A stretch of DNA of 12,569 bases from a virus, in the IMG/VR virus record IMGVR_UViG_3300020216_000004. One strand, written 5' to 3'. Positions 1-12,569 of this stretch are shown in pieces. Every line of letters starts with the position of its first letter. Position 1 is the first letter of the stretch. The translations under genes were made by a program, and so were the position numbers. Below the pieces are notes generated by a model. That model was given only the letters and a program-made list of their open reading frames with translations. It did not search any database and was not told where the DNA came from.

Positions 1-576
1 CCCCTATTGTAAATTGTCAGACAATTCCCCATAACACATTAGAATATGATGAGTCAATAGATATGAGAGTAATATTAGTCAACACTAATTAAAATATAAT
101 AATAGAAAGATATGCAGTGGAAATGTATATAGAATAACTCAACAATAATAACAACTATAAATAATAAACTAGAATACTATAACACCAGTTAATTAGATAA
201 CTACTAGAAACACGATAACAACAGGTATGATAGAATACTATAAATAATAATATATAAATTAAATAAACTAAATTAAATAATAATAAATAATAACTATTAT
301 AAGATATCTGATAATTGAATATATACGAATAAATAAACTATATGAATTAGAGATAATAGTAATTAGGAATAATAATAATAGAAATGAATTAGAAGTGTAT
401 AGGAGGTGTTTGAATAGACAAGGTGAAGACTTACCTATCAAAGGTATTGAAACACTCACAACAAGCTTATATAGACTGTGAGATGTAGTATGTGATATAG
501 GTGTATGTAGATATAATAAAAGAAGTTATCTATAGAATTAACTATAAATAACCTCTTGTAATTTTGTATGGTTTAT
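1..576. repeat. Left inverted terminal repeat (ITR), 576 bp
   Basis: I reverse-complemented 1..576 in 60-nt blocks against 11994..12569 and found no mismatch. Identity ends at 577 (t) versus 11993 (c). The repeat starts at window base 1, so this looks like a true genome terminus. Confidence 0.95.
12..26. promoter_or_regulatory. Terminal palindrome AATTGTC-A-GACAATT, a candidate origin or protein-binding site (mirror copy at 12544..12558)
   Basis: Perfect 7-bp arms around a single central base. It is bracketed by CCCC at 1..4 and 27..30, and ATTGT is directly repeated at 6..10 and 13..17. It lies 11 nt from the genome end, where protein-primed replication origins are located. Confidence 0.4.
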
Positions 577-3500
577 TTAATTACTACTCCACTAGCAAGT
601 AACTGTTCTATGATATCTTTTTCATCTTCTGAAGCTGATATATCTAAGAATACATCAGATACTTCTACATAACCGTCTACTTCATGTAGGGTTACATAGT
701 CATTGGATTGCTTACCAAAGTCTGAGTTAGATTCATAAGGTATGTTTCTAATAACCTCAATGAATGGAGTTTCTAACTCGTTATGAATGTATCTACCAAT
801 CTCAGTTATTAGTGTATCTTTAGAAGACCTCATGAATGGTATCTCATGTGTTAATGGTATATCAGTTCTTGATACTAGCTTATTGCCTATCTTGCTACTG
901 TACACATTAAGGGTAGCTGTAGCATTGTATAGGTCTAACGATAGGGTAAGCTTGATATCTTGGTTAATAACATAGTCAGGGTCTATATAGATAGGCTGTT
1001 CATTGTATGGTACATGAATGTTAGTCTCAGTCTCCATATAGTCATAAACGTTGTGGTGCTCCTCTTCAACACGAATAGTTCCTAGGTCGAATAGAACCTT
1101 GTTATCTAACATGTAGTTAGCTTCTGCGTTCGATGTCCTTTGACCTATATTGATAGGTACTACTGCGTTACTAATCATCTCTTCAGGTAACTTAACAGGT
1201 AATGAATATAGGTTGTAGAAATAGTCTCCATAGTCTACTGTCTCACCGTTTACCAGGTCACCAAATCTATCTACACTTAAGGTGTTCAGTATAGACTGGT
1301 TAACAGGGTAGATATTAACGAAATTAGATACAAAACCGTCATAGGTCTTTTCTGAAGCTACTGCTGTAACTATAATCAGGGTAGTACCTGTGAATCGGTC
1401 TTCCCAGTACTCACCAATATTAAGAGTAAATACTGTCTTGTCTTCGTTAAAGTTAGGGTCTTCATCAGGGTATAAGTTAATTAAGTCAGGTGAATTATTA
1501 TCAAAGGTTCTAATGTCTAACTCAATACCTTCGTTGAATACAAAGCCATTATCAGCTGTAATTACAATAGTGTCCTCCTGGTTAACACCTCTACCTTCTG
1601 GAATGTTAGAGCTAGCGTTAACTAATTCTGACCCGAATCTGGCTCTAGGATAGCCTGCTATAGCTTCTACATGAATAGACTCTACTGTATCGGTAACTAA
1701 GGTGCTGAAGTCTAAACTTAATACTGTACCCTCTTCATTAAACTCTCCAGGTACTTCATGGAGCTTGTAGGAGACTTCTGAGCCATCTCCAAGGGTAACG
1801 GTAACCTCATGTAACTCAAAGCCTTCTAAAGCTTCATAATTGACTACAGTGAAGTTTGATACCGTATCGCTCTCGATACTTGATACTACGTTCTCTAATT
1901 CTTCGGTATACCCTACCTCAATTAACTCAGCTGTTGTAACCTGAATCTCTAAGGTAGTTAAGCCTGGTTCAAAGTATTCAGCAGGAATGATTTCAATTAC
2001 AGATTTACCTTCTACATCAGTTAAGTTTACTGTTTCATCATCACCGATTAAGGTAACTGAGTTCAGTATATAACCTTCATCAGAAGTAACTGTAATAGCT
2101 TGGTCTGGTTCTACCTCGATACCCTCTACATCTGTACTAGCGTTCTCTAACTCTTCATAGTACCGAATAGGGAAAGACTCTACAATCTCTTCCTGAGTGA
2201 TTACTGATATAGCAATGGTTAGATGGTCACCGTCTTCGAAATAGTCACCCCACTCGAATTTAACGTTACCATTCTGACCATATACTGGTAAGCTTACTGT
2301 CTCATAGGTATCTGGTGTACCAGGTGAACCTCCGAAACCGTTCCGTGGTGGCTCTCCATCAGTTCTCATGATTAACTCGATAGACTCGAAAGCGTGCGTG
2401 CTATAGGTCAGAACATCTACTGTATCGTTCTCATAGAGTCGTGTTACCCCATAGTAAGGGTAGTTCTCCCAAAACCCGCTTGAGTCTCCATTTACAGGCA
2501 TATCCCAGGTTACAGATTTAGGTGGCTTGTCACCTCTTACCTCTATAGCTGTGACTGGTTCTACTAATACCTCTTCGTCTATAACTTCCCTAGATACCTC
2601 TATACCGTCTTCATAGGTAATTAGAATTGTTAGGTTAGCTAATCCATCTGAACCCTCTATGTATTCTGTATCACCAATTAGAATCGTATCGTCATAGACT
2701 ACCTCTTCATCGTGAGGAATAACCTCTTCTACTGTGATAGTTTCTGTGGTAACTTCAGGCTCATAGTTAGGGTCTGCATAGGTGTATACCAACGTATCGA
2801 AACCTTGAAGCTCTCCAGGGTTAGGATAACCTCTACCTGGTGCATAGGTAAATTCTGTTTGCTCATATACGTTGTCGTCATCGTTAGGTATCTCAGCGTC
2901 CTGTACATCTAGTAACCAACCATCGTTAACTGTCCAAACATCTACTGAAATTGTGTCGAACGTATAACCAGGGTTAGCTCTAATTGTGATTGGTTGAGCC
3001 CATTGGTAAGTATCAGGTTCTACTGTATATGTATCATCATTCCCCTGCTTACTGATTGGTACAGGGTCATACGTTGGTTCTAACGTACCTATTACCTGGA
3101 TAGCATTAACAGGTTCTAACACTACCTCATACCCTATAACTTCCCTAGATACTTCTACACCGTCTTCTAAGGTAATCTCATAGGTAATACTCATGATACC
3201 CTCAGTACCCTCTATAAGCTCTTCCTCACCTACAGGCATAGTATCGTCTTCTACGGTATCTGTTTCATACTCTATTGGTTCTTCTATCGTCTCTTCTTCT
3301 ACAGTTATTACAGGTTCAGTCTGTACAGGTGTTACATAGATGTCAATAATCGTTAAGTCCGGGTAATAAGTAGTGTTACCATCTCGTAACTCATGTACGA
3401 TATAAGAGTTTGTAGGCTCGAAATATACTGTGTTAGCTTCTCTATCTACTTGGATATATTGAGGATATTCTGCGTCTGTGTATTTACCTCTAGCGTTGGT

Positions 3501-3752
3501 AATGTACCCTGAACCTAAGTCTTCTTCTACCTCTACTCTATCAATCGTGTAATCTTGACTAACGGTTAATATGTAATCATGGTGCCAATTAAAGCTTGTA
3601 GAAACCGATTGTGTATTCTCAACATTTACAACGATATCGTCTACATCTGTAGAGCCATCAGTATTAAACACGTTAAACTCTACATATTTGTCTGTACTCG
3701 TTGCTATGGGTCTAGTAGACTCTTTTTCACCGAATCTAAATGCAAGTGCCAT
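573..3752 (-). CDS. Large modular tail protein (1059 aa): repeated beta-rich modules plus two G5 domains, fused to a phi29 gp9-like tail-knob C-terminal domain
   Basis: Start is preceded by AGGAGGTTAAATA-ATG, with the SD embedded in the last codons of the upstream ORF. The C-terminal ~255 aa (about nt 576..1346) end in ...GYVEVSDVFLDISASEDEKDIIEQLLASGVVIK, resembling the phi29 gp9 C-terminus ...[33 protein letters not shown] (recalled). It is the last gene of the structural block. Its TAA stop (573..575) lies just inside the ITR. Confidence 0.8.
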   Translation of the reverse strand: MALAFRFGEKESTRPIATSTDKYVEFNVFNTDGSTDVDDIVVNVENTQSVSTSFNWHHDYILTVSQDYTIDRVEVEEDLGSGYITNARGKYTDAEYPQYIQVDREANTVYFEPTNSYIVHELRDGNTTYYPDLTIIDIYVTPVQTEPVITVEEETIEEPIEYETDTVEDDTMPVGEEELIEGTEGIMSITYEITLEDGVEVSREVIGYEVVLEPVNAIQVIGTLEPTYDPVPISKQGNDDTYTVEPDTYQWAQPITIRANPGYTFDTISVDVWTVNDGWLLDVQDAEIPNDDDNVYEQTEFTYAPGRGYPNPGELQGFDTLVYTYADPNYEPEVTTETITVEEVIPHDEEVVYDDTILIGDTEYIEGSDGLANLTILITYEDGIEVSREVIDEEVLVEPVTAIEVRGDKPPKSVTWDMPVNGDSSGFWENYPYYGVTRLYENDTVDVLTYSTHAFESIELIMRTDGEPPRNGFGGSPGTPDTYETVSLPVYGQNGNVKFEWGDYFEDGDHLTIAISVITQEEIVESFPIRYYEELENASTDVEGIEVEPDQAITVTSDEGYILNSVTLIGDDETVNLTDVEGKSVIEIIPAEYFEPGLTTLEIQVTTAELIEVGYTEELENVVSSIESDTVSNFTVVNYEALEGFELHEVTVTLGDGSEVSYKLHEVPGEFNEEGTVLSLDFSTLVTDTVESIHVEAIAGYPRARFGSELVNASSNIPEGRGVNQEDTIVITADNGFVFNEGIELDIRTFDNNSPDLINLYPDEDPNFNEDKTVFTLNIGEYWEDRFTGTTLIIVTAVASEKTYDGFVSNFVNIYPVNQSILNTLSVDRFGDLVNGETVDYGDYFYNLYSLPVKLPEEMISNAVVPINIGQRTSNAEANYMLDNKVLFDLGTIRVEEEHHNVYDYMETETNIHVPYNEQPIYIDPDYVINQDIKLTLSLDLYNATATLNVYSSKIGNKLVSRTDIPLTHEIPFMRSSKDTLITEIGRYIHNELETPFIEVIRNIPYESNSDFGKQSNDYVTLHEVDGYVEVSDVFLDISASEDEKDIIEQLLASGVVIK
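2529..2741 (-). other. G5 domain 2 within the tail protein (aa ~338-408)
   Basis: TITVEEVIPHDEEVVYDDTILIGDTEYIEGSDGLANLTILITYEDGIEVSREVIDEEVLVEPVTAIEVRGD is a paralogue of domain 1. The DNA also matches: 2581..2621 versus 3136..3176 agree at 37 of 41 nt (ATAACTTCCCTAGATAC...). Confidence 0.75.
3084..3311 (-). other. G5 domain 1 within the tail protein (aa ~148-223)
   Basis: VITVEEETIEEPIEYETDTVEDDTMPVGEEELIEGTEGIMSITYEITLEDGVEVSREVIGYEVVLEPVNAIQVIGT fits the G5 pattern: I-x-[FY]-x-T-x(3)-D-x(2)-[LM]-x(2)-G, then EG-x-x-G, Y-E-[IV]-T, DG-x-E-V-x-R-E-V, P-V-x-x-I-x-V-x-G-T. Confidence 0.75.
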
Positions 3753-3755
3753 TAT

Positions 3756-4187
3756 TTAACCTCCTATCGTTACTAAAATAATATTCTCTTCAAACTCTAG
3801 TGTTACATCGCTATCGTATATATCGTGAGTCTTCCTAACCTCACTTGGATAGTCTCCACCGTTATAATATGGGTTATGTCCTAAGTGTTTAGATACAACA
3901 CCCTTACAAGCTAGTATCTCATCTTTGAAGCTTTCTAATACGTCTACCTCTAAGATTAATCTGGATAGATTATTTCTTTGAGCTATGATATCCTTAACGA
4001 AATAGAAGCGTTCGAAATCTGGGATATAAGCATAATTTTTACTGGTACGCTCTCCTTCTTTTAGGAGTATTTCAGGGTTTAATACATCAGCTTCACCTCT
4101 GAATTGAACTTCATAGGTAGCTTCATCAGATAACTCTTTATTGATAGTGTTATTGGAGCTGGTTGTGTTATACAACTTTATTTCCAT
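3756..4187 (-). CDS. 143-aa tail protein resembling the N-terminal domain of the phi29 gp9 tail knob / distal tube protein
   Basis: SD AAGGAGGG lies upstream of the ATG. NYAYIPDFERFYFVKDIIAQRNNLSRLILEVDVLESF...GVVSKH...IILVTIGG parallels recalled gp9 [42 protein letters not shown]...FIVREH...MFLVIISKS. The ORF stops 3 nt before the start of the 1059-aa ORF. Confidence 0.65.
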   Translation of the reverse strand: MEIKLYNTTSSNNTINKELSDEATYEVQFRGEADVLNPEILLKEGERTSKNYAYIPDFERFYFVKDIIAQRNNLSRLILEVDVLESFKDEILACKGVVSKHLGHNPYYNGGDYPSEVRKTHDIYDSDVTLEFEENIILVTIGG

Positions 4188-4208
4188 GTGGTGTTACCCT
4201 CCTTAGTT

Positions 4209-4245
4209 ATAAAAAAATAGAGGTAGAGTTCCCCAACTCCACCCC
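4209..4245 (-). terminator. Rho-independent terminator downstream of the major capsid gene
   Basis: Minus-strand RNA reads GGGGUGGAGUU-GGGG-AACUCUACCUC, an 11-bp stem with two G-U pairs and a GGGG loop. It is followed directly by UAUUUUUUUAU. Confidence 0.7.
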
Positions 4246-4283
4246 TACAGGTAATAAAGCATGGCATTGCTTTATTGATTCTT

Positions 4284-5444
4284 TTAAGCTACAAGGAACA
4301 CAAGGAAGTTTTCATTTAAGTCATTGAAGTATCCTGCGTCCATCTTGTAATAGTTCGTGAAGAACTCGGCTTTAGCATTATAGTTTGAAGTAACTCGTCG
4401 GTCTAAGTTAGCAACTCCTACCGCTTGGCTATCAAACATAACTCCTAAGATTCCGGAAGCTTCTATTTCTGTATTTTTAGTAGCTACGTTAATTTTAGAT
4501 ACTGATTCAAAGTCATATGTATCTCCTGAACCTTGCCAGTATGGTACTGTTTCGTAATTAGGTAGCTGAACCATTTCACTATTATATGTATCTGATTGTA
4601 AGAATGTTTTAGTAGCACTTGCAAAGTCAGATAATAGAACAATAGTAACTTCTGATTCTGGTGTAAATTTCTCTTTCCCACCAACGTTAAATAATGTAGA
4701 AATCTTACTCATACGGTCTTTATATAGGTTAACTAAGTATGAAGCAAAACGAATAAATTCAGGGTCTCTATAGCTTTCATCTGGTGTTAGAGCTTCACCT
4801 GATTTTTCGTTGTATAATGCAAGTAAGTTAATTGCTTTAACTCCTGTTTGAGTTAAATCTAAAGTACCTTCAGCATTGGTTAAGTCATCTGATAATGTTT
4901 CAGCAGTCATATTGTTGATTGCTCTCATTACCAATCCATCTAGTTTAATAGTCATAGATTTCTCTACACCATTGAAAATCATAGTTAAGAATCCATTTAA
5001 TTGTTCTGCGTTTGAGAATGATTCTTTAACTTGTAATTCAGTAAATGAAATTGGTACTTCAAATGTTACCTTAGAGTTAAAGAACTTAGCTGATACCTTA
5101 GGTTGATAGAACACATCTTGGATATAACGCTGTCCATCCTCTAGAGCCCAAGACTCGTTCTCGTGTGCTTCAGGAATATCAGAAGAAATCTTTTCTAAGA
5201 TAGAACCATATTCCCAACCGTCCATAATTACACTAGGAACGTTACCTGAATAAACTCTATCATCAAAGATTACCTTACCAATATGGTTAACTAGTTTCTT
5301 TACATAGTTATCAATGTTATCTGAATCAATGATTTCATTACCAACATCTACAATGTTAGATAAGTCTTCTTGTACAACGTCTTCACGTCCTAAGACTTGT
5401 TCTGTAGCTGTATTCATAATGTCATGTATTTGCGTTACTCTCAT
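4284..5444 (-). CDS. Major capsid protein (386 aa), phi29 gp8-like HK97 fold
   Basis: The N-terminal region ...NIDNYVKKLVNHIGKVIFDDRVY... parallels recalled gp8 ...[22 protein letters not shown].... Its size and position in the structural block fit, and it is flanked by its own extended -10 element and a terminator, as expected for the most abundant virion protein. Confidence 0.8.
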   Translation of the reverse strand: MRVTQIHDIMNTATEQVLGREDVVQEDLSNIVDVGNEIIDSDNIDNYVKKLVNHIGKVIFDDRVYSGNVPSVIMDGWEYGSILEKISSDIPEAHENESWALEDGQRYIQDVFYQPKVSAKFFNSKVTFEVPISFTELQVKESFSNAEQLNGFLTMIFNGVEKSMTIKLDGLVMRAINNMTAETLSDDLTNAEGTLDLTQTGVKAINLLALYNEKSGEALTPDESYRDPEFIRFASYLVNLYKDRMSKISTLFNVGGKEKFTPESEVTIVLLSDFASATKTFLQSDTYNSEMVQLPNYETVPYWQGSGDTYDFESVSKINVATKNTEIEASGILGVMFDSQAVGVANLDRRVTSNYNAKAEFFTNYYKMDAGYFNDLNENFLVFLVA

Positions 5445-5475
5445 TATTCATTTCCCCTTTTTCTATTTTATATAT

Positions 5476-6096
5476 TTAATATACCAACGTACCAACCGTT
5501 TGACTTACATCTTGGAATATATTTTCTACTAAAACTTTGTTATTTAGATATCTAACTGCTTTCTCTCGGTCGTCGATAGCGTTGGAAGTATTTCCCTTAG
5601 TTTCAGAAGTCCTTGTTTCATTACCGCTTGTTATCTCTGAGTTGTCTCCAGTATTAGTACTACTTTGAGTGTTCTCGTCAGAGTCAGCAAAGTCTTCTGA
5701 GTTGTACCCTGCAACTGAATTAGTTTGCTTGTCATTACTAGTGTTAGAGTAGTCAGTAATGTTACTACTATCTGACTCAGTTTTTTCAGTTGTGGTTAGG
5801 TTATATGTCTCTAGTGGTATCTCAGCCTTATAAACTTCTGCAAGCTTATTCCATTTGTCAGCGTACATACCATATAACATACTAGCTATTAATTTTAAGT
5901 CTTCCTCTTTAACATTCTCTTTCTCTCCAATTAAGTTATTAACTAGGGGAGAAACCTTCCTGCTACCGTGTTGACTCACGAATAGCAGGTCAGTAGTTGA
6001 GATGTCTTGGAAGTCATTTAGGAGTTCTATATCACCAATCTCATTGAGATAGTGAAACAGACCTTTACCTTCTTTGTATAAGTCTCTTATATTCAT
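5476..6096 (-). CDS. 206-aa structural protein of uncertain role (lower-collar/adaptor or scaffold candidate)
   Basis: A clean ORF between the portal and capsid genes. It has an N-terminal helical-looking ~100 aa, a central ~70-aa S/T/N/D/E-rich low-complexity tract (TTEKTESDSSNITDYSNTSNDKQTNS...TSGNETRTSETKGNTSN), and a short conserved-looking C-terminus. Its position after the portal matches gp11, and its position before the capsid matches gp7. Confidence 0.6.
   Translation of the reverse strand: MNIRDLYKEGKGLFHYLNEIGDIELLNDFQDISTTDLLFVSQHGSRKVSPLVNNLIGEKENVKEEDLKLIASMLYGMYADKWNKLAEVYKAEIPLETYNLTTTEKTESDSSNITDYSNTSNDKQTNSVAGYNSEDFADSDENTQSSTNTGDNSEITSGNETRTSETKGNTSNAIDDREKAVRYLNNKVLVENIFQDVSQTVGTLVY
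5478..5486 (-). promoter_or_regulatory. Extended -10 element TGGTATATT upstream of the capsid gene
   Basis: The minus strand reads TTGGTATATTAA and overlaps the last codons and stop of the 206-aa ORF. The capsid SD (AAGGGG) and ATG lie about 20-35 nt downstream. It is one of four TGnTATATT copies, all at gene junctions. Confidence 0.5.
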
Positions 6097-6118
6097 ACCC
6101 TTATTACTCCCTATCTAT

Positions 6119-6127
6119 AATATAGCA
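6119..6127 (-). promoter_or_regulatory. Extended -10 element TGCTATATT upstream of the 206-aa gene
   Basis: The minus strand reads TTGTGCTATATTATAGATAGGGAG in the 82-nt portal/206-aa intergenic gap, with the SD 7 nt downstream of the hexamer. No convincing -35 is present. Confidence 0.5.
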
Positions 6128-6178
6128 CAAAGGCTACTTTAAAATTTGATAGTAGAGGTGCGTTCTAACAACGCTAGA

Positions 6179-7525
6179 TTACTCTACTTCTACTTCTTCC
6201 TTGTCTTCTTCTTCCTCTTCTTCAGGTTCTTCTAGAATCTCTTCTAAGTCTTCTACTAAGTCCTCTTTGTCTTCCTCTTCAACTGGTTCATCAGTCTCTA
6301 AGGTTTCCTCTAAGTCCTCTTCAAAGTCTTCTACATCCTCTTTAAGCTCTACATCCTCAATATCTACAGTATCTTGTTCAGGTAACTCTTCTACTTCCTG
6401 CTCAGGTAGTTCTTCAGAAGTATCTTGAATAGGTAAGTCCTCTACTTCTTGTTCAGGTAGTTCTGAGTCGTATTCTAGGTCTAATATAACCTCTTCAGTT
6501 TCTTCTACAGGGTTAACTTCATCTTGCTCCTCAAACTCTTCAGAAGCCTCATAATCACCTTTTAAGAAACTGTCAGAAATCTCTCTAGCTTCATCTATAC
6601 TGATACCTTCATTACCTTCTTCGTTAAGCGTGTTAACCTCGTCTTGGTTCTCTCTATAGTCAGTCCATGAAGAGCTTAGCTTAACTGTAATGTTTTGGTC
6701 GAACATCTCGTTAACCTCTTCTATAGCTTCCTTACGATGGGATAACATATCATCAATTAGAGGGTATAAGCTTTCACTATTTACCTGTACTTCATCAGTA
6801 ATTAAACGCTCTTTCTTCATGTTGTTATTAGCATTTAAACCAATCTCGTTGTACATAGTAGCTTTAAGGTACTGTTGAAACTCTACAAGGTCACTAATAT
6901 TAGTTTTAGAACCTTCACCAACTGCGTTTGATTTCAAACTATCGAATAGCTTATTCTCAAAGATATATCCTAAGTTACCCTTTTCAATGTTATCTAAGTA
7001 CTCTTTAGCTGACTCAGCTGTATTATCATCAGCAACCGAAATCATGTTATTGATACGGTTATTGAATGTAGTTAACATCATAGTAATCTCATTTTCATTC
7101 ATGAAAGTACCATACTTAGAGTAGATAGGAACTAACCCCATAAGCATATAGTCATTTTTCATAAGTACTATGTCTTCACCAATTTTAAGGTTACCATTGT
7201 AGTTAAGGTAAGGGTTTGAGACTGTAAATAAAGTTGGTTTTCCATATACGTTAGGCTCTCCACCTAGTCCACCATAGAAGGCATATAGTTCTCCTTCTAC
7301 CTTAGTTAACCCCGCGTAACCGTTTGTCTGTAGCAGGCGTTCTAACTCTTTAGCAGGTAGTGAATCGGGTAACCCTTCATACTCAAACATCTGTAAAGAC
7401 CTGTTAAGCATGTAGTTTACATGGTTTCTTACGTTGATTTGCTTATCATCATACTGGTACTTAATACCTTTAATACCATTGTATAAGCCCCAATCATATC
7501 GCTCATTGTATTTGCTTTTACTCAT
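6179..7525 (-). CDS. Portal / upper collar connector (448 aa), phi29 gp10-like core plus a polyacidic C-terminal extension
   Basis: LQMFEYEGLPDSLP parallels recalled gp10 YQLFEWENLPPTINP, and NMKKERLITDEV parallels LEKKERMVTDEV. The start is AAGGAGCGTATAT-ATG, overlapping the ATPase stop. The homologous core ends near aa 285, and aa 291-448 are about half Asp/Glu. Confidence 0.9.
   Translation of the reverse strand: MSKSKYNERYDWGLYNGIKGIKYQYDDKQINVRNHVNYMLNRSLQMFEYEGLPDSLPAKELERLLQTNGYAGLTKVEGELYAFYGGLGGEPNVYGKPTLFTVSNPYLNYNGNLKIGEDIVLMKNDYMLMGLVPIYSKYGTFMNENEITMMLTTFNNRINNMISVADDNTAESAKEYLDNIEKGNLGYIFENKLFDSLKSNAVGEGSKTNISDLVEFQQYLKATMYNEIGLNANNNMKKERLITDEVQVNSESLYPLIDDMLSHRKEAIEEVNEMFDQNITVKLSSSWTDYRENQDEVNTLNEEGNEGISIDEAREISDSFLKGDYEASEEFEEQDEVNPVEETEEVILDLEYDSELPEQEVEDLPIQDTSEELPEQEVEELPEQDTVDIEDVELKEDVEDFEEDLEETLETDEPVEEEDKEDLVEDLEEILEEPEEEEEEDKEEVEVE
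6365..6466 (-). repeat. Tandem 2 x 51-nt (17-aa) repeat inside the acidic portal tail
   Basis: SELPEQEVEDLPIQDTS is followed by EELPEQEVEELPEQDTV (aa 354-387). On the plus strand, 6388..6413 and 6439..6464 match at 23 of 26 nt. Confidence 0.85.
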
Positions 7526-7536
7526 ATATACGCTCC

Positions 7537-8667
7537 TTATAGTTGTTTACTAACGTTTAAGTAGTTATTAACTGAATCTCCTACATCATTATCTTGATAG
7601 AACACTTTATCAGTATCAAAGAAATACTTAATGTTTTTACCTAGCTTGTTAACTGGTTTATGAATACTTCTTTGATAGTTGAACTTGTGACTGAACTCTA
7701 AGCTGTAAATGATGTCTTCGTCTTCATCCTTGATTGGTGTTGTCTTATCATGAATGAATGTAAACATCTCATTATCTACCTCTATGATTTCACATTGATA
7801 AATGAATCCATCAAACTTAATAAAGTAGGTTAGTAAGATATCTTTAGCTTTATATTTAACTGGTAAGTGAGGGTAGATATCTAATTCCCATGCACCATCT
7901 GTAATCATGTTTAACTTAGGGTTATCAAAGGCAAAGTAGAAGTTATTCTTTTTATTTTTTGATGTTGATTGTGCATACTCTACTGCTACCTTTAAGTTAG
8001 AATCCCCATATGTGTAGAGGTCTATAGTTCCCTGGTCTTGCTTATGGATATGCTTAAGCCCCATCTCGTTAAAGTAAGGGCTGTACTTATTAACCGTGTT
8101 ACCTAGCATGAATATCGTTACATCTTTACGTTGGCGTATAATCGTACTCAACGTATTCATGAAGAGTACAAACTCATCCTTTAAGTACATACCTCTGGTT
8201 AAGAACTCATCAAAGAGTATTGTCTTAATATTAGGGTAAGAGAATGATTTGTTATGTTCTGTATCTGACAAAGCAAACACATAGGCAAAGATATCACTAT
8301 CGCTGTATACCGCTCTACCTTCATCATCGTAGTTACAGAAGTAGAATCTACCTGAGTAATAGGTAATACCTTCAAACTTACCATCACTAATCTTATAGAT
8401 TTCATCGTTGGCAATTAGGGCACTAAAGATTTCACTAGCTCTTTTACCCTTAATGTCTTCTTGCCACCGTCTAAGGAGGGCTAACTGCCCGCCATTTTCA
8501 AAGTATACCTCTATAGCATGCTTCAGTACTGCGTATGTCTTACCATTGGAACGTTCCCCGAATATAACGTTATAAACTGCTTTTTTAGATAGAATAGCGT
8601 TCAGGTTATAGTAGCTATCCTGTTTATTTTTAGGTTTGTCTTTTTTGCTTGTATCTGTTTGTACCAT
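7537..8667 (-). CDS. DNA encapsidation ATPase, phi29 gp16-like (376 aa from the preferred start)
   Basis: Walker A is GERSNGKT (8536..8559). Walker B YPNIKTILFDEFL matches recalled gp16 YPNVSTIVFDEFI, and NKYSPYF matches VVNPYF. I prefer the ATG at 8665..8667 (GGAGGTTATCAG-ATG) over the ORF-track ATG at 8709. The 8709 start has no SD and lies upstream of the TGCTATATT element at 8690..8698. Confidence 0.9.
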   Translation of the reverse strand: MVQTDTSKKDKPKNKQDSYYNLNAILSKKAVYNVIFGERSNGKTYAVLKHAIEVYFENGGQLALLRRWQEDIKGKRASEIFSALIANDEIYKISDGKFEGITYYSGRFYFCNYDDEGRAVYSDSDIFAYVFALSDTEHNKSFSYPNIKTILFDEFLTRGMYLKDEFVLFMNTLSTIIRQRKDVTIFMLGNTVNKYSPYFNEMGLKHIHKQDQGTIDLYTYGDSNLKVAVEYAQSTSKNKKNNFYFAFDNPKLNMITDGAWELDIYPHLPVKYKAKDILLTYFIKFDGFIYQCEIIEVDNEMFTFIHDKTTPIKDEDEDIIYSLEFSHKFNYQRSIHKPVNKLGKNIKYFFDTDKVFYQDNDVGDSVNNYLNVSKQL

Positions 8668-8689
8668 CTGATAACCTCCATCACTATAT

Positions 8690-8698
8690 AATATAGCA
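8690..8698 (-). promoter_or_regulatory. Extended -10 element TGCTATATT upstream of the ATPase gene
   Basis: The minus strand reads CAGGTGCTATATTATATAGTGATGGAGG, between the polymerase stop (8724) and the ATPase SD (8675..8679). Confidence 0.5.
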
Positions 8699-8723
8699 CC
8701 TGAGTTCATCTAATCTGCTTAGA

Positions 8724-10865
8724 CTAGATAGCCCTTGTTAGTTTCTCACCTTCATAGATATACCCTTTACGGTATCTTTCAATCAATTGAGTTTGTTTCT
8801 CTAAAGGTGATAACGTAAATTCAGCATTCTCTAGGTGTATACCTGATTTAGTGTAGACTGCTTCTTTTACCCCTCTATAATCGGTTATCACAAACTGCTT
8901 AATGTCATCAATGTAAACGTGATTCATATTACCTGTATCTTCAGCAGGGATAGATAAGCTCTTATTAAAGTTGTTAAACACGTTCGTGTTGTCTCCAAAG
9001 GTTCTCTGAAGGTAAGATAAGCCCTTGTCCTTACTTAAGCCTGCTAAGGTCATTTCTAGGTCTCCTGTAGCCTTATCTTCAACTAGATACTGCTTAGCTC
9101 CTAGTGCTTTAAAACGGCTGTATTTACCGTCTAATTCCCATGTACCTATAAGTTTCTTTTCACCGTATTTGTTCTCGGGTCTAAGTCTCTCAAAGTCTAT
9201 CGTGAAAGACTCATCACTAACGGGTTTATTTAGGGTATCTACCATCTTCTTAAGCTTCATTTCAATCATCTTGTTATACTGTTCAAAGAAGCCTTCATGC
9301 TTCTCAGGTTCTTTAAGCTTAACTGCGTCTGTATCTGAGTAAACATAGTCATCTTTAAGGTTCAGGATAGCCACCCAAAGGTTTCTGCGGGCATAGGCTG
9401 TTGTCCATACACCCCAAGGGTAATATAAGAAGCGGGAGTGCTTGGTGTTGTATTTCTCAATCTGTTTATCAGGAGTCTCTTCTTCTATGTCCTCAGTCTC
9501 TTCAAAGTCAGGCTGTTTTCTAACTACATCTGTAACGGTCATACCGTATACTGAGTTAAGCATTTCCTTGCTTAGTAAATACTCAGTTTGTCGGTCAGGA
9601 ACGCCTTTATTGATTGTTTTTTTCTCATATAATGTTATAATAGACTTAATAAGGTTTCTAGGTAGATAGTCCTTTTTGAACCTATAAACATTGGCTATTT
9701 GCATAGATTCCCAATCATAGACTTTTTGAATAATCTCAAAGTCTACATCTGTAATTGTGGTTACCAGTTCATCAGCCGAAAACACTCTACCGTTATTTAC
9801 AATCGGTTTTTTAACAACATGGCATTTTGACTCTGATATGTAGTTCTCAAAATCAATCTTACTGATAAGGTCTTTGAATCTTACATCAAAGAGTAAGGCA
9901 TAGCCCTGCTTGATATAATGGTTTAAGTCCTTATCCTTTGTTAGCTTGGTACTGATTCCTTCACTCATAGGGAACTGTTCAGATAGCATAGCGGCAGGGT
10001 AAGAGCTTATCAGGTCATAACTGGCTACATCCTCAATTACCTCATTAGCATAGCTTGGATTAGCGTGTGTGAAACCACCCATAAATCCATCCTTGCTCTT
10101 TTCGTATACATCTCTAGTTAACTGAAGCTTAAGCATTAAGTTTCTATAGTCTGTACGTTTACCCCTACTCGTTTTCTTGTGGTCGGTATTCGTGTAATAA
10201 CAGTTGTGTCGAATGTAATTTCTAACTCTAGCTGTATTGGTTAACGGTATCTTGGATATATTCCCGTATATCCTTCTTTGTTCGTTAATGTAATACAGTA
10301 TAATTAGTACATCATTTCTCATGTACTCTAGCTCTTTAGTGAATAGTACTGTGTTCTGGTGTCTTACCTTAGTATAATCAAGTTCACCTTTGAGTTTCTT
10401 AATCTCATGGTGTACAAGGCTGTCAGCTACATCTGACAAGCTTTTACCGCTTAGTATATAACTATCACGAAACTCTATACCTGATTTAGTGGTGGCTGTG
10501 ATTGGTTTCCTGCTGTCAGTTCCGAAAACTTGCTTCCAGGTAAACCATTTTCTCATGAACTGAAATTCATAAGATAAGTTATGTATATAAACGATAAGCC
10601 TTCTATCTTCCTTTAAGTTGTAAAACTTTTGTAGATAGTTGACTAGTTCACGGAATTGCTTCCAAGTCCTTCCATGAACGATATTCTCATTATTCTTTAT
10701 TCCGAAAGTCCAGGCATACATGAAACCAACTTTTTCACCATCTACAATGGTAGAAGTTGTTTCAACATCGAATGCACATTCAATGTCTACATATGTAGCG
10801 TTGCCTTTTCTTTTGTTTGATTTTATTTCTTTGTGGTCTATGTCTTCCAAATTTAAACCATACAT
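8724..10865 (-). CDS. Protein-primed family-B DNA polymerase (713 aa), phi29 gp2-like
   Basis: Motifs seen: Exo I AFDVETT; Exo II IHNLSYEFQF; Exo III YMRNDVLII; motif A DLISSYPAAM; motif B KEMLNSVYG; motif C YSDTDA (9324..9341, checked at the DNA level); KxY GAKQYLV. Long inserts between motifs A-B and B-C sit where phi29 has TPR1 and TPR2. Confidence 0.95.
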   Translation of the reverse strand: MYGLNLEDIDHKEIKSNKRKGNATYVDIECAFDVETTSTIVDGEKVGFMYAWTFGIKNNENIVHGRTWKQFRELVNYLQKFYNLKEDRRLIVYIHNLSYEFQFMRKWFTWKQVFGTDSRKPITATTKSGIEFRDSYILSGKSLSDVADSLVHHEIKKLKGELDYTKVRHQNTVLFTKELEYMRNDVLIILYYINEQRRIYGNISKIPLTNTARVRNYIRHNCYYTNTDHKKTSRGKRTDYRNLMLKLQLTRDVYEKSKDGFMGGFTHANPSYANEVIEDVASYDLISSYPAAMLSEQFPMSEGISTKLTKDKDLNHYIKQGYALLFDVRFKDLISKIDFENYISESKCHVVKKPIVNNGRVFSADELVTTITDVDFEIIQKVYDWESMQIANVYRFKKDYLPRNLIKSIITLYEKKTINKGVPDRQTEYLLSKEMLNSVYGMTVTDVVRKQPDFEETEDIEEETPDKQIEKYNTKHSRFLYYPWGVWTTAYARRNLWVAILNLKDDYVYSDTDAVKLKEPEKHEGFFEQYNKMIEMKLKKMVDTLNKPVSDESFTIDFERLRPENKYGEKKLIGTWELDGKYSRFKALGAKQYLVEDKATGDLEMTLAGLSKDKGLSYLQRTFGDNTNVFNNFNKSLSIPAEDTGNMNHVYIDDIKQFVITDYRGVKEAVYTKSGIHLENAEFTLSPLEKQTQLIERYRKGYIYEGEKLTRAI

Positions 10866-10883
10866 TAAAGTCTCACCCCTAAC

Positions 10884-11453
10884 CTACATGTCGAACCAAT
10901 CCCAGGTATTAATTTCATTCTCAATGTTCACCTGGTCAGCTTTAGCTTCTTCTATAAGAGCTTCTAGGTGGTCGCTTAGTTCACCTATTTCCAATCCTTC
11001 TCGTTCAGCATAGTTATTGATAAGAGCCCATCTTTCCTGGTACTCCATATATGTTGAATCCGGGTCGTTCTTTTGGTACTGCTCTAGCTTAGAAGCTACA
11101 TCAGCTGTCTCTTTAATCTTATTAGGTAAGTCTCTAATAGAGTTATACTTAATACCCATTCTATCAGCGGTATCTTTAAGTACTCTATTTGCTCCCCTTA
11201 CAAGGCTTGTCTTGGAGTTTAAGAAGTTATCTACCCTGTTGAGTTCTTTTCTAAGTACGTTAACATCAGTTCCCGCTGATGAAAATCGTTCTCCTCCACG
11301 GTAGTTATTCTCATTACTCCAAGACCTGTAAGCAGGCAAGCCTGTTAAGTCATTCTCTTCCAATCGCTTTAACCGTTTATTGGCTTTAGACACCTTACCT
11401 CTTAGTTCATCGGTTAATCGTTTAGCTTCACCTTCCAGTTTTAGCTTCATCAT
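10884..11453 (-). CDS. Candidate terminal (priming) protein, 189 aa
   Basis: It lies immediately upstream of the protein-primed polymerase, as in phi29, Cp-1, PRD1 and Bam35. The start has a strong SD (AAGGAGGAGTTTAATGA-ATGATG). The N-terminus is basic (KVSKANKRLKRLEE) and the C-terminus is acidic and helical. Resemblance to recalled phi29 gp3 is only weak. Confidence 0.5.
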   Translation of the reverse strand: MMKLKLEGEAKRLTDELRGKVSKANKRLKRLEENDLTGLPAYRSWSNENNYRGGERFSSAGTDVNVLRKELNRVDNFLNSKTSLVRGANRVLKDTADRMGIKYNSIRDLPNKIKETADVASKLEQYQKNDPDSTYMEYQERWALINNYAEREGLEIGELSDHLEALIEEAKADQVNIENEINTWDWFDM

Positions 11454-11468
11454 TCATTAAACTCCTCC

Positions 11469-11735
11469 TTATATCTCGAATACATTACTGATAAAGACCT
11501 TCTTATTAAGACCTTTACTGAGGTTATAGTAATGATAGAGGTAATCTATACTGTTGGCATTTCCATGCTCGAAAGCTGATACACTCTTGATGTTAAGGTC
11601 AGTTAACTCTCCAAAATCAGTTAGAGATAACCTTAAGTAATCCTCTCGATACTTCTTACAGAACCTACCTATCTTCTTCATACGTTGTTTCTTATCGTAT
11701 TTACCTACATTCTCTTTAGTAAGTGTGTTATCCAT
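11469..11735 (-). CDS. XRE-like helix-turn-helix DNA-binding protein (88 aa)
   Basis: IGRFCKKYREDYLRLSLTDFGELTDLNIKSVSAFEHGNANS fits the HTH_3/Cro-C1 pattern (R-x(3)-L-S-x(3)-[FL]-x(4)-[VIL]-x(3)-[VIL]-S-x-[FIW]-E-x-G). The start is GGAGGATTAAC-ATG. It is the second gene of the early transcription unit. Confidence 0.6.
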   Translation of the reverse strand: MDNTLTKENVGKYDKKQRMKKIGRFCKKYREDYLRLSLTDFGELTDLNIKSVSAFEHGNANSIDYLYHYYNLSKGLNKKVFISNVFEI

Positions 11736-11745
11736 GTTAATCCTC

Positions 11746-11868
11746 CTATTTAATAGTTTCCCAGTATTCCATCAATTCTACATAAGCAAGTAATCCACCT
11801 GCTGTAAACTTCGCATTACTACGCTCACATAACTTCTTGTAGTCGAATATCATCTGTACGTTAACCAT
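11746..11868 (-). CDS. Small 40-aa ORF, first gene of the early unit (absent from the supplied ORF track)
   Basis: I translated it by hand as MVNVQMIFDYKKLCERSNAKFTAGGLLAYVELMEYWETIK. The start is AAGGAGGTATTGA-ATG. Its TAG stop abuts the SD of the HTH gene. No family was recognised. Confidence 0.45.
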   Translation of the reverse strand: MVNVQMIFDYKKLCERSNAKFTAGGLLAYVELMEYWETIK

Positions 11869-11901
11869 TCAATACCTCCTTGTCTATGACCTCTTATACC
11901 T

Positions 11902-11930
11902 AATATAGCATAACTACTCTAGTAATCTAA
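11902..11930 (-). promoter_or_regulatory. Candidate early promoter: TTAGAT, 17-nt spacer, (TGC)TATATT
   Basis: The minus strand reads TTCTTAGATTACTAGAGTAGTTATGCTATATTAGG, about 27 nt upstream of the SD of the first ORF. A consensus TTGACA also lies further upstream (11951..11956) but has no good -10 partner. Confidence 0.5.
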
Positions 11931-11993
11931 GAATAGGATAATTATTCTAATGTCAATAGAACACTGCGTACAGATATACAATTACAGTATACC

Positions 11994-12569
11994 ATAAACC
12001 ATACAAAATTACAAGAGGTTATTTATAGTTAATTCTATAGATAACTTCTTTTATTATATCTACATACACCTATATCACATACTACATCTCACAGTCTATA
12101 TAAGCTTGTTGTGAGTGTTTCAATACCTTTGATAGGTAAGTCTTCACCTTGTCTATTCAAACACCTCCTATACACTTCTAATTCATTTCTATTATTATTA
12201 TTCCTAATTACTATTATCTCTAATTCATATAGTTTATTTATTCGTATATATTCAATTATCAGATATCTTATAATAGTTATTATTTATTATTATTTAATTT
12301 AGTTTATTTAATTTATATATTATTATTTATAGTATTCTATCATACCTGTTGTTATCGTGTTTCTAGTAGTTATCTAATTAACTGGTGTTATAGTATTCTA
12401 GTTTATTATTTATAGTTGTTATTATTGTTGAGTTATTCTATATACATTTCCACTGCATATCTTTCTATTATTATATTTTAATTAGTGTTGACTAATATTA
12501 CTCTCATATCTATTGACTCATCATATTCTAATGTGTTATGGGGAATTGTCTGACAATTTACAATAGGGG
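11994..12569. repeat. Right inverted terminal repeat (ITR), 576 bp
   Basis: Exact reverse complement of 1..576 and ends at the last base of the window. The identical 63-aa ORF reported at 268..459(-) and 12111..12302(+) is a by-product of this repeat. Confidence 0.95.
12095..12123 (-). promoter_or_regulatory. Weak inward-facing promoter candidate inside the ITR: TTGAAA, 17-nt spacer, TATAGA (mirror copy 447..475 on the plus strand)
   Basis: Sequence match only. At the right end it would read toward the early genes. At the left end the mirror copy would read antisense into the 3' end of the tail gene. Confidence 0.25.

Follow-up and report, generated by a model that had tools for sequence, protein, structure and literature searches.

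The genome of a small phi29-like virus encodes a tail protein of 1059 amino acids that carries two G5 domains (Pfam PF07501) in its N-terminal part, and G5 recurs in five related tail proteins of sister phages (P0014, P0015, P0020, P0060 and P0074). The Pfam profile matches the open reading frame (ORF) twice (E = 3.4e-29, 101.3 bits in the whole-protein profile search; gathering cut-off, 23 bits). Each copy is also recovered on its own: the fragment of residues 140-229 scores E = 4.6e-18 and 65.7 bits over positions 1-74 of the 75-position profile (copy 1), and the fragment of residues 330-416 scores E = 3.2e-16 and 59.7 bits over positions 1-75 (copy 2). The initial annotation, made from the letters of the sequence, had placed two G5 domains within a phage tail protein at 2529-3311, an interval that corresponds to residues 148-408 of ORF 573-3752 on the minus strand. 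The Pfam check bears out both domains, since each copy alone lies far over the threshold.

Genome organisation and phage relatives

The window, that is, the whole 12,569-bp stretch of DNA that was analysed, is a complete linear genome of nine genes of the protein-primed phi29-like type, as indicated by its perfect 576-nt inverted terminal repeats. An independent JGI assembly reproduces part of both genome ends. The genome encodes PolB, the gp16 ATPase, the connector and Phi29_MCP, and together with its terminal inverted repeats it is syntenic with Astrithrvirus-like phages. The features of the genome ends and the tail region are as follows.

1-576, no strand: left inverted terminal repeat, pairing perfectly with 11994-12569
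520-557, minus strand: terminator-like hairpin just past the stop codon of the large gene, within the terminal repeat
573-3752, minus strand: gene of the large tail protein, 1059 aa (ORF, synteny), putative large half of a split tail knob
3756-4187, minus strand: gene of the 143-aa protein, upstream of the large gene, putative small half of the split tail knob
4217-4248, minus strand: terminator-like hairpin (14-bp stem and U run; fold z-score -3.2) separating the capsid gene from the pair of tail genes
11994-12569, no strand: right inverted terminal repeat, 576 nt

Searches of the window for an Rfam packaging RNA and for tRNAs found none, and megablast of the entire window against 50,697 phage records returned no match. 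The major capsid protein (MCP) is 59% identical to that of the ~11.5-kb Astrithrvirus-like phages, with matching gene order, and the core proteins are 45-65% identical to those of Salmonella phage astrithr and Acinetobacter phage Phanie, again in the same order (57% for the Phanie MCP). The terminal repeats differ in length, with 576 nt in the window and 171 nt in Phanie.

The 143-aa protein is 31-49% identical to the ORF at the same position in all relatives examined. Its family aligns with that of phi29 gp9 (hhalign; probability 77.5%, E = 1.9e-5), residues 1-105 corresponding to gp9 residues 19-135. Neither this family nor that of the 206-aa protein matched the phi29 lower collar protein gp11.

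The large protein occupies the same place in its genome as the large proteins of Astrithrvirus-like phages (astrithr and Astrid gp10, Phanie gp10, and the DU_PP_III protein) in their syntenic genomes of ~11-12 kb, namely immediately behind a partner gene of ~145 aa. Only its C-terminus matches their large ORF (tblastn to astrithr, Astrid, assan, Phanie, DU_PP_III and others; E = 4e-21 to 4e-4). This homologous domain of ~250 aa shows 25-30% identity, and its model superimposes on the 568-aa protein of Salmonella phage Astrid (Foldseek E = 8e-22, TM 0.71). Judged by position and C-terminal homology at the sequence level, the protein is the large tail-knob protein of the Astrithrvirus-like group, in agreement with its first description as a phage tail protein. 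The C-terminal domain defines a family of at least 693 clusters (phmmer; cluster representatives at E<=1e-3), in which it always lies at the C-terminus. Total lengths in the family range from 202 to 1316 aa, and the 1059-aa protein is among the three longest of the 154 members compared. Ahead of the domain, the present protein and its Astrithrvirus-like counterparts all have a variable array of small beta domains; at the same arm position, Flg_new, InlB B-repeat and aBig_2 domains are found in other members of the family. A split knob with a variable number of lateral Ig-like domains has been described for Astrid, DU_PP_III and Phanie (PMC11476376, section 2.6). The isolated Astrithrvirus-like phages lack G5, whereas the protein of the window has two.

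A match between the C-terminal domain and phi29 gp9 was not reproduced. In hhalign only the last 34 residues aligned, to gp9 552-585 (E = 0.016, probability 2.8%), a weak similarity that falls at the same end of both proteins, and neither Foldseek against the PDB nor a profile search of PDB sequences gave a significant match for the domain. The knob assignment therefore rests on synteny, on the match of the 143-aa protein and on published modelling, from which the equivalence of the large protein and gp9 has been claimed (PMC11476376). The phi29 knob protein is the product of one gene, in contrast to the two genes of the window, and gp9 has neither a lateral domain array nor G5.

With a bacterial G5 as query, GenBank phages yielded nine records. 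The three that were checked lack the core genes of this family, and a fourth match coincides with a protein annotated as cell-wall-anchored, where a prophage record ends; these matches were rejected.

Modules of the large tail protein

The large tail protein is extremely acidic (pI 4.05; D+E 20%, K+R 4.4%) and contains no Cys. It starts with MALAFRFGEKE, and no signal peptide, LPXTG motif or A-domain is evident in its sequence. Adaptation to a halophilic lifestyle was considered as the source of the acidity and rejected, because only the virion proteins are acidic while the polymerase has a pI of 8.3. The modules are listed from the N-terminus to the C-terminus.

3312-3752, minus strand: N1, aa 1-147, module at the N-terminus, presumably the distal tip of the arm
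3084-3311, minus strand: G5 copy 1, aa 148-223 (Pfam PF07501)
2748-3083, minus strand: X2, aa 224-335, a module of 112 aa between the G5 copies
2526-2747, minus strand: G5 copy 2, aa 336-409 (Pfam PF07501; three strands in the model)
2532-2621, minus strand: C-terminal half of G5 copy 2 at the DNA level, 80% identical to 3087-3176 in copy 1
1335-2525, minus strand: X3-X6, aa 410-806 (internal similarity, AlphaFold2, Foldseek)
576-1334, minus strand: conserved C-terminal domain, aa 807-1059, family-defining, presumed to form the knob and to anchor the protein on the virion

Thus ordered, the modules ahead of the C-terminal domain read N1-G5-X2-G5-X3-X4-X5-X6 over ~800 aa. N1 has no homologue among 158 collected proteins, nor was one found by a word-indexed search. 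The X2 region matches the related tail protein P0014 (phmmer; aa 99-203, E = 5e-19; aa 6-83, E = 3e-7). X4-X6 form a set of three related beads, each a beta-sandwich (Ig/FN3-like) of about 90-100 aa; they are similar among themselves (z 5.8-10.8) and are matched by Foldseek to FN3, Ig and sushi arrays; X6-like modules are present in many family members. In the full-length AlphaFold2 model, pLDDT reaches 85-95 from about residue 525 on, a stretch that covers these beads; for the C-terminal domain AlphaFold2 gives pLDDT 85.9. The N-terminal 523 residues are poorly modelled, with N1, G5 copy 1, X2 and X3 at pLDDT <50 and an alignment that is too shallow. Copy 2 nevertheless shows three long strands (334-345, 370-381 and 384-397) at pLDDT 62-78.

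The best stretch of copy 1 in the Pfam search of the whole ORF is aa 152-223, and copy 2 was placed at about aa 336-409 from its stand-alone fragment score. Both copies were aligned with 19 other G5 segments, which include P0002, P0003, P0011 and P0012 as well as phage relatives. Column for column, bacterial G5 domains align with the family motif (I/V)TYEDGVEVSREV, and the core (I/V)TYEDG(V/I)EVSREV with a terminal G is common to the two copies and the 19 other segments. The matches could in principle be compositional artefacts of a very acidic, E/V/T-rich sequence without true homology, given that the large protein is the most acidic among the 154 family members compared and that tblastn of copy 1 against GenBank phages was empty (possibly through low-complexity masking); however, each copy alone spans the profile at about 60-66 bits, the equally acidic remainder (aa 1-147, 230-329 and 409-1059, scored as separate fragments) matches no Pfam family, and the sole PDB sequence match to the G5 region, weak as it is (E = 0.33), is the G5 chain 4fzq_A at the same residues, so that the single-copy profile scores and the alignment with bacterial G5 effectively refute this explanation as far as sequence evidence goes.

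Duplication and origin of the G5 pair

The two copies are 50% identical in protein sequence (38/76 aligned positions), and each is the other's best match, with a local alignment score at z = 21 against shuffles. At the DNA level, 2532-2621 and 3087-3176 are 80% identical over 90 nt. The best 41-nt segment within this region has exactly 37 identities (2579-2619 versus 3134-3174), which confirms on recomputation a stretch reported in the initial annotation. Where the C-terminal halves have identical residues, the same codon is used at 17/22 positions against 9.2 expected (P = 6e-4); in the N-terminal halves the figures are 8/16 and 6.8. Because the excess of shared synonymous codons is found only in the C-terminal halves, these comparisons indicate an old duplication followed by partial gene conversion. 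The 41-nt stretch had been taken to imply a fairly recent duplication or ongoing recombination: the protein identity of 50% speaks against a recent duplication, and the codon excess favours recombination.

The closest bacterial G5 domain found is 43% identical to those of the phage protein. A search of a collection of 5.8 billion proteins returned only four multi-G5 or RpfB-like proteins, all at <=43% identity. The G5 copies in tail proteins of sister phages are 41-42% identical, as close as or closer than bacterial G5, and the X2+G5 block (aa 230-410) is 37% identical over 183 aa to the corresponding region of the nearest relative, L011 (tblastn). Since this block is common to the nearest relative, the module was already present in this phage lineage, and its occurrence in the five related tail proteins likewise marks G5 as a family module. 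A recent capture from the surface-protein repertoire of the host, as first suggested, is at odds with these observations.

The domains had also been expected to hint at the identity of the host. With no bacterial homologue above 43% identity, they give no specific host clue and point at most loosely to a Gram-positive bacterium; the usable clue that had been the main hope of the initial annotation was thus not delivered. The isolated Astrithrvirus-like relatives infect Gram-negative bacteria, which counts against a Gram-positive host.

Two other sources of host information were rejected. JGI scaffold Ga0116604_10136 links the phage to genes for a transketolase and a cyclase, but the join contains an 'n' and falls 78 nt into the terminal repeat, so the flank was discarded as a scaffolding chimera. 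The 57 related loci in metagenome bins (MAGs) carry the labels Bacilli, Clostridia, Bacteroidales, Treponema, Melainabacteria and Methanobrevibacter, and these assignments were regarded as binning noise.

Possible roles of the G5 domains

We read the virus, with moderate confidence, as a phi29-like mini-podovirus with a split knob, in which arms formed by the N-terminal part of the large protein would adsorb to the host and the G5 domains would act as spacers. The tail-knob protein of phi29 would here be divided over two genes, the 143-aa protein representing its N-terminal part and the 1059-aa protein the remainder. The conserved C-terminal ~250 aa would form the knob and keep the large protein on the virion, and the ~800 N-terminal residues would extend laterally, forming an arm that consists of eight small beta-rich modules. 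There would be six such arms if the knob is hexameric like that of phi29 gp9. Because a search of the window found no separate gene for a fibre or appendage, nor any other gene from which a fibre could be made, the arms are taken as the probable adsorption organ of the phage, with the unique N1 tip as the likeliest receptor-binding part. The G5 pair, situated in the outer half of the arm, may provide elongated, mechanically strong spacers that lengthen and stiffen it, perhaps enough to cross a thick Gram-positive wall or a capsule layer.

The staphylococcal proteins SasG and Aap offer the nearest precedent for such spacers. In SasG, G5 is a rigid, single-layer, triple-stranded beta module of 78 residues that unfolds only at about 420 pN (PMC4458895). 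In these proteins, as in the phage protein, G5 modules are arranged in series within an elongated extracellular protein. However, SasG/Aap has five or more tandem G5 domains, against two in the phage protein, and separates them by E domains of ~50 aa, whereas the module between the phage copies, X2, is 112 aa long and unrelated to G5. The stiffness of SasG depends on the alternation of G5 and E domains, an arrangement absent here, so its rigidity may not transfer. SasG/Aap is also anchored in the wall, whereas the phage protein has no LPXTG motif, ends in a phage tail domain and is encoded in a phage structural operon. The rigid stalk put forward in the initial annotation is still the most plausible reading, as it would fit the position of G5 in a chain of beta modules.

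An unlikely alternative, also raised in the initial annotation, is that the G5 domains bind carbohydrate or the cell wall, so that the virion would be held reversibly on the peptidoglycan, or on a glycopolymer of the wall, of a Gram-positive host. Wall-active proteins of bacteria contain G5, among them peptidoglycan hydrolases in which it lies between LysM and M23 domains (PMC9662197). P0012, among the closest bacterial matches, has the DUF348-G5-3D architecture of RpfB/YabE-type proteins, which contain a single G5 of comparable sequence (32% identity to P0012 by BLAST, 38% in the domain alignment); neither DUF348, 3D or Rpf nor any other catalytic domain is detectable in the phage protein. 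That X2 and G5 are conserved together in the nearest relative might be the mark of a functional binding unit. The GlcNAc binding invoked in the initial annotation was indeed what was first proposed for G5 (Bateman et al. 2005, cited by the review PMC9662197), but the same review reports that the assumption was contradicted by later work (Paukovich et al. 2019). In SasG, G5 is described as structural (PMC4458895). In the phage protein the domains are internal to the arm, off its tip, and, being extremely acidic (net charge -22 and -19), they are less likely to bind anionic teichoic acids or peptidoglycan.

It is improbable that the phage is a helper-dependent satellite whose G5 arms dock the virion on the tail of a hypothetical helper or otherwise exploit that helper. 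Phanie, which belongs to the same group and has the similar MCP noted above, is reportedly infectious only when attached to the contractile tail of myophage Aci01-1 (Pourcel et al. 2024, according to PMC11476376). The window has no recognisable endolysin or holin; the G5-bearing L012 lacks them as well, and none was found on the partial contig L011. Astrithr, Phanie and L007, in contrast, carry an endolysin directly after the large gene, where the window has none. However, small unannotated ORFs could encode lysis functions, and since Phanie itself encodes an amidase, the satellite phenotype as it is known does not include a loss of lysis genes. A more specific version, rated lower again, would make the virus a Gram-positive counterpart of Phanie, dependent on a helper, with G5 arms that grip the helper tail or hold the particle at a wall breached by the helper. 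If this were true, G5 would serve in docking, virus to virus or virus to wall, instead of being a passive spacer.

On the preferred reading of G5 as an arm spacer, the novelty is circumscribed. The display of Ig-like and other bacterial surface-protein domains on phage structural proteins is a general phenomenon, in which a small beta domain is likewise inserted in an exposed part of a virion protein. A literature search found no description of G5 on phage structural proteins. With the split knob and its lateral array of beta domains already known, G5 in the tail arm of a mini-phage is a modest new twist, by which G5 joins the cell-surface domains recruited by phages.

G5 counts as a hallmark of the surface proteins and wall-active proteins of Gram-positive bacteria, and whether it serves as a spacer, in zinc-dependent adhesion or in glycan binding is debated. 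Its repetition in the putatively exposed arm of a minimal phage tail protein presents the same module in an independent setting, where length and stiffness may be readable directly as adsorption and host range. The carrier is a tailed phage of 12.6 kb with nine genes, none of them recognisable as a lysis gene. Its group is large and for the most part uncharacterised, with one isolated member that is helper-dependent, and the phage would be well suited as a minimal system in which to ask how few proteins suffice for a tail.

Genome and relatives

The two ends of the window (1-576 and 11994-12569) are perfect 576-nt inverted repeats, which mark it as a complete linear genome of 12,569 bp; the genome is phi29-like and protein-primed. 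Its left end begins CCCC. At 28% GC the repeats are AT-rich, and a motif like ACTATAAATAATAA recurs in them in many imperfect copies; Acinetobacter phage Phanie has repeats of 171 nt and metagenomic locus L012 of 55 nt. Parts of both repeats were recovered in an independent JGI assembly (99.975% identical). JGI 3300009048 scaffold Ga0116604_10136 (30.8 kb), whose phage part covers window positions 277-12071 at 99.975% identity, joins the phage to bacterial-looking genes for transketolase and cyclase (L003:1560-1760). The join sits 78 nt into the terminal repeat and contains an 'n'; a scaffolding chimera is the probable explanation, not an integration.

Gene order and terminator-like hairpins, all on the minus strand
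40-aa ORF
88-aa protein
189-aa protein, in the terminal-protein position
Family-B DNA polymerase
gp16-type packaging ATPase
6179-7525, connector
5476-6096, 206-aa protein
Phi29_MCP capsid protein
4217-4248, strong terminator-like hairpin (14-bp stem and U run), after the capsid gene and before the two tail genes
143-aa protein
573-3752, 1059-aa protein
520-557, second terminator-like hairpin, after the large gene and inside the terminal repeat

No DNA-level relative was found among GenBank phages. The proteins are 45-65% identical to those of the ~11.5-kb Astrithrvirus-like phages, with conserved gene order; identity to Salmonella phage astrithr is 59% for the capsid protein, 61% for the ATPase and 47.5% for the polymerase. 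Phanie, Pectobacterium phage DU_PP_III, Entb_47 and a Vibrio phage are also related, and metagenomic relatives are numerous. Fifty-seven genome-bin loci (L025-L081; GTDB), with capsid identities of 46-65% and many on contigs of ~11-13 kb, were binned in MAGs of very different phyla, Methanobrevibacter among them, and such bin labels are unreliable as hosts. Related loci also occur on several scaffolds of a Herbiconiux daphne isolate assembly, and the group is widespread in gut and rumen data. In the two closest G5-bearing relatives (metagenomic loci L011 and L012, independent assemblies), the replication-packaging block (small gene, terminal-protein-like gene, polymerase, ATPase and connector) is inverted relative to the capsid-tail block, giving two divergent operons where the window has a single direction.

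No endolysin, holin or tail-associated hydrolase was recognisable in the whole genome with Pfam, PHROGs or NCBIfam. In astrithr, Phanie and locus L007 an endolysin gene lies immediately downstream of the large tail gene, whereas the window genome lacks it; L012 and the truncated contig L011 end right after the large tail gene. The absence may reflect helper dependence or an unrecognised lysis mechanism. A very hydrophobic 63-codon ORF, reading outward in each terminal repeat (268-459, minus strand, mirrored at 12111-12302, plus strand), is the only membrane-protein-like ORF in this holin-less genome, and is probably an artefact of AT-rich sequence.

Although a gp16-type ATPase is present, Rfam gave no match to the phi29 packaging RNA; any packaging RNA of the group would be a new family. 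The genome also has no tRNA gene. A weak Rfam hit to the cow-rumen-4 RNA motif, at 26.4 bits below the gathering score of 48.5, overlaps the hairpin at 4217-4248. The connector (pI 4.05, D+E 27%) has a hyper-acidic C-terminal tail of ~150 aa (aa ~300-448) with repeats such as ELPEQEVE(D/E)LP, outside its Phage_connector Pfam match (aa 31-284). The 206-aa protein, conserved throughout the group, gave no match to the phi29 lower collar gp11 or to any library family; it may be a scaffold or a small lower collar.

The large tail protein and its G5 domains

The initial annotation had placed two G5 domains in a phage tail protein at 2529-3311, a span that corresponds to residues 148-408 of the 1059-aa protein, whose single ORF holds both copies. 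Pfam bears this out: G5 (PF07501) is the sole family matched, in two stretches (E 3.4e-29), and each copy scored separately spans the full 75-position profile (copy 1, E 4.6e-18; copy 2, E 3.2e-16), while three non-G5 fragments gave no Pfam match. The core motif, (I/V)TYEDGVEVSREV, aligns with bacterial G5 domains. A compositional artefact was excluded because neighbouring segments are just as acidic and give no match, and because of this alignment. Residues 1-523 modelled poorly because homologues are lacking; within them, copy 2 alone has three long strands, at moderate confidence.

Modules of the 1059-aa protein (X, unnamed modules)
aa 1-147, N1
aa 148-223, G5 copy 1
aa 224-335, X2
about aa 336-409, G5 copy 2
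aa 410-~523, X3
aa ~524-806, X4, X5 and X6
about aa 807-1059, conserved C-terminal domain

Resemblance to proteins of isolated phages is confined to the C-terminal ~250 residues (about 807-1059), whose counterpart is the large ORF found directly after a ~145-aa ORF in every Astrithrvirus-like genome. A HMMER scan with aa 409-1059 against 1.84 billion cluster representatives (E<=1e-3) found this domain in at least 693 clusters, always at the extreme C-terminus of proteins of 202-1316 aa; the family thus combines a fixed C-terminus with a freely variable N-terminal extension. The 1059-aa protein shows all four of the defining features tested and is a member of this large tail-knob family. Synteny and its partner gene give good support to its role as a tail protein, as does elimination: none of the other genes could form a tail.

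A review (PMC11476376, section 2.6) describes the phi29 tail knob gp9 as divided between two proteins in Salmonella phage Astrid, DU_PP_III and Phanie: a small one for its N-terminal part and a large one whose C-terminus corresponds to that of gp9, with Ig-like domains, variable in number and placed laterally, ahead of it. Consistent with this, hhalign places the 143-aa family on gp9 residues 19-135 (probability 77.5%, E 1.9e-5) and gave no alignment with gp11. The C-terminal domain model (pLDDT 85.9) matches the Astrid protein (E 8e-22, TM 0.71) and no solved structure; against the gp9 family profile, only its last 34 residues align by hhalign, collinearly and not significantly (E 0.016). Following PMC11476376, this domain would be the counterpart of the gp9 C-terminal part. 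X4-X6 are mutually related (z 5.8-10.8), were modelled as separate beta-sandwich beads (pLDDT 85-95), and match FN3, Ig and sushi arrays in Foldseek. The protein has no cysteine and is the most acidic of 154 compared family members (pI 4.05, D+E 20%, K+R 4.4%); acidity is limited to the virion proteins of the phage.

Origin of the two G5 copies

The two copies are mutual best relatives (50% identity), and their DNA repeat is 80% identical over 90 nt. Its best 41-nt window has 37 identities (2579-2619 against 3134-3174), as had been noticed and read as a fairly recent duplication or ongoing recombination. Identical residues use the same codon at 17 of 22 positions in the C-terminal half (9.2 expected from the genome's own codon usage; P = 6e-4) and at 8 of 16 in the N-terminal half (6.8 expected). 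Recent duplication would give shared codons along the whole copy and so loses ground; the mosaic fits an old duplication whose C-terminal halves may later have been homogenised by gene conversion, which retains the recombination part of that proposal.

Pfam detects G5 in five of 47 long family members, this one included, others carrying Flg_new, divergent InlB B-repeat or aBig_2 domains. A local profile found it in the related tail proteins P0014, P0015, P0020 (a tandem pair), P0060 and P0074; ranked by C-terminal domain, three of these fall within the ten closest relatives. P0014, encoded by the nearest relative by capsid identity (L011, 68%), has a contiguous X2+G5 block in common with the 1059-aa protein (37% identity over 183 aa). 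G5 was found in none of 44 knob ORFs of genome-bin relatives and in no isolated phage of the family. Judged from these sequences, G5 is a module that recurs, though uncommonly, within one sub-lineage, where it was inherited rather than freshly captured.

The suggestion that the domains came from the host surface-protein repertoire and hint at host identity is not supported for any specific host, since bacterial G5 domains are at most 43% identical to the phage copies and those of sister phages 41-42%. G5 has a Gram-positive distribution, and one relative encodes a CHAP plus CW_7 endolysin; together these give a coarse hint of a Gram-positive host.

Possible roles of the G5 arm

The best-supported reading, which we consider somewhat probable, is a knob with lateral arms in which G5 provides stiff spacers. 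The C-terminal domains and the 143-aa protein would build the knob at the tail tip, and the N-terminal 800 residues would stick out sideways; since no gene for a fibre or appendage is present, these arms would have to serve adsorption. The unique N1 module would be the likeliest receptor-binding tip, and the two G5 domains, in the arm's outer half, would serve as long, stiff spacers that resist force. Oligomeric state, outward orientation and spacer role are what we infer. In SasG, G5 is a rigid, 78-residue, single-layer triple-stranded beta module that resists about 420 pN (PMC4458895); from those figures each copy would measure about 7 nm, and two would add ~14 nm of reach. The SasG/Aap adhesins differ in having E domains, a tandem array and a wall anchor, all absent here.

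Direct binding of wall or glycan by G5 is unlikely: although RpfB/YabE-like and LysM-M23 wall enzymes contain G5, its GlcNAc binding was contradicted in later work (cited in review PMC9662197), and the phage domains lie inside the arm and are strongly acidic. Docking of the arms to a helper phage tail is more doubtful still, even though Phanie reportedly depends on a myophage and no lysis gene is recognisable in the window genome, in G5-bearing L012 or in truncated L011.

The literature searched has no description of G5 in a phage tail protein, and annotated phage records of the Astrithrvirus-like family lack it. Phages are well known to take up cell-surface beta domains into exposed proteins, and G5 adds to that set. 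The carrier of the G5 arm is more unusual: a complete tailed phage of nine genes, with terminal repeats of 576 nt and no recognisable lysis gene.
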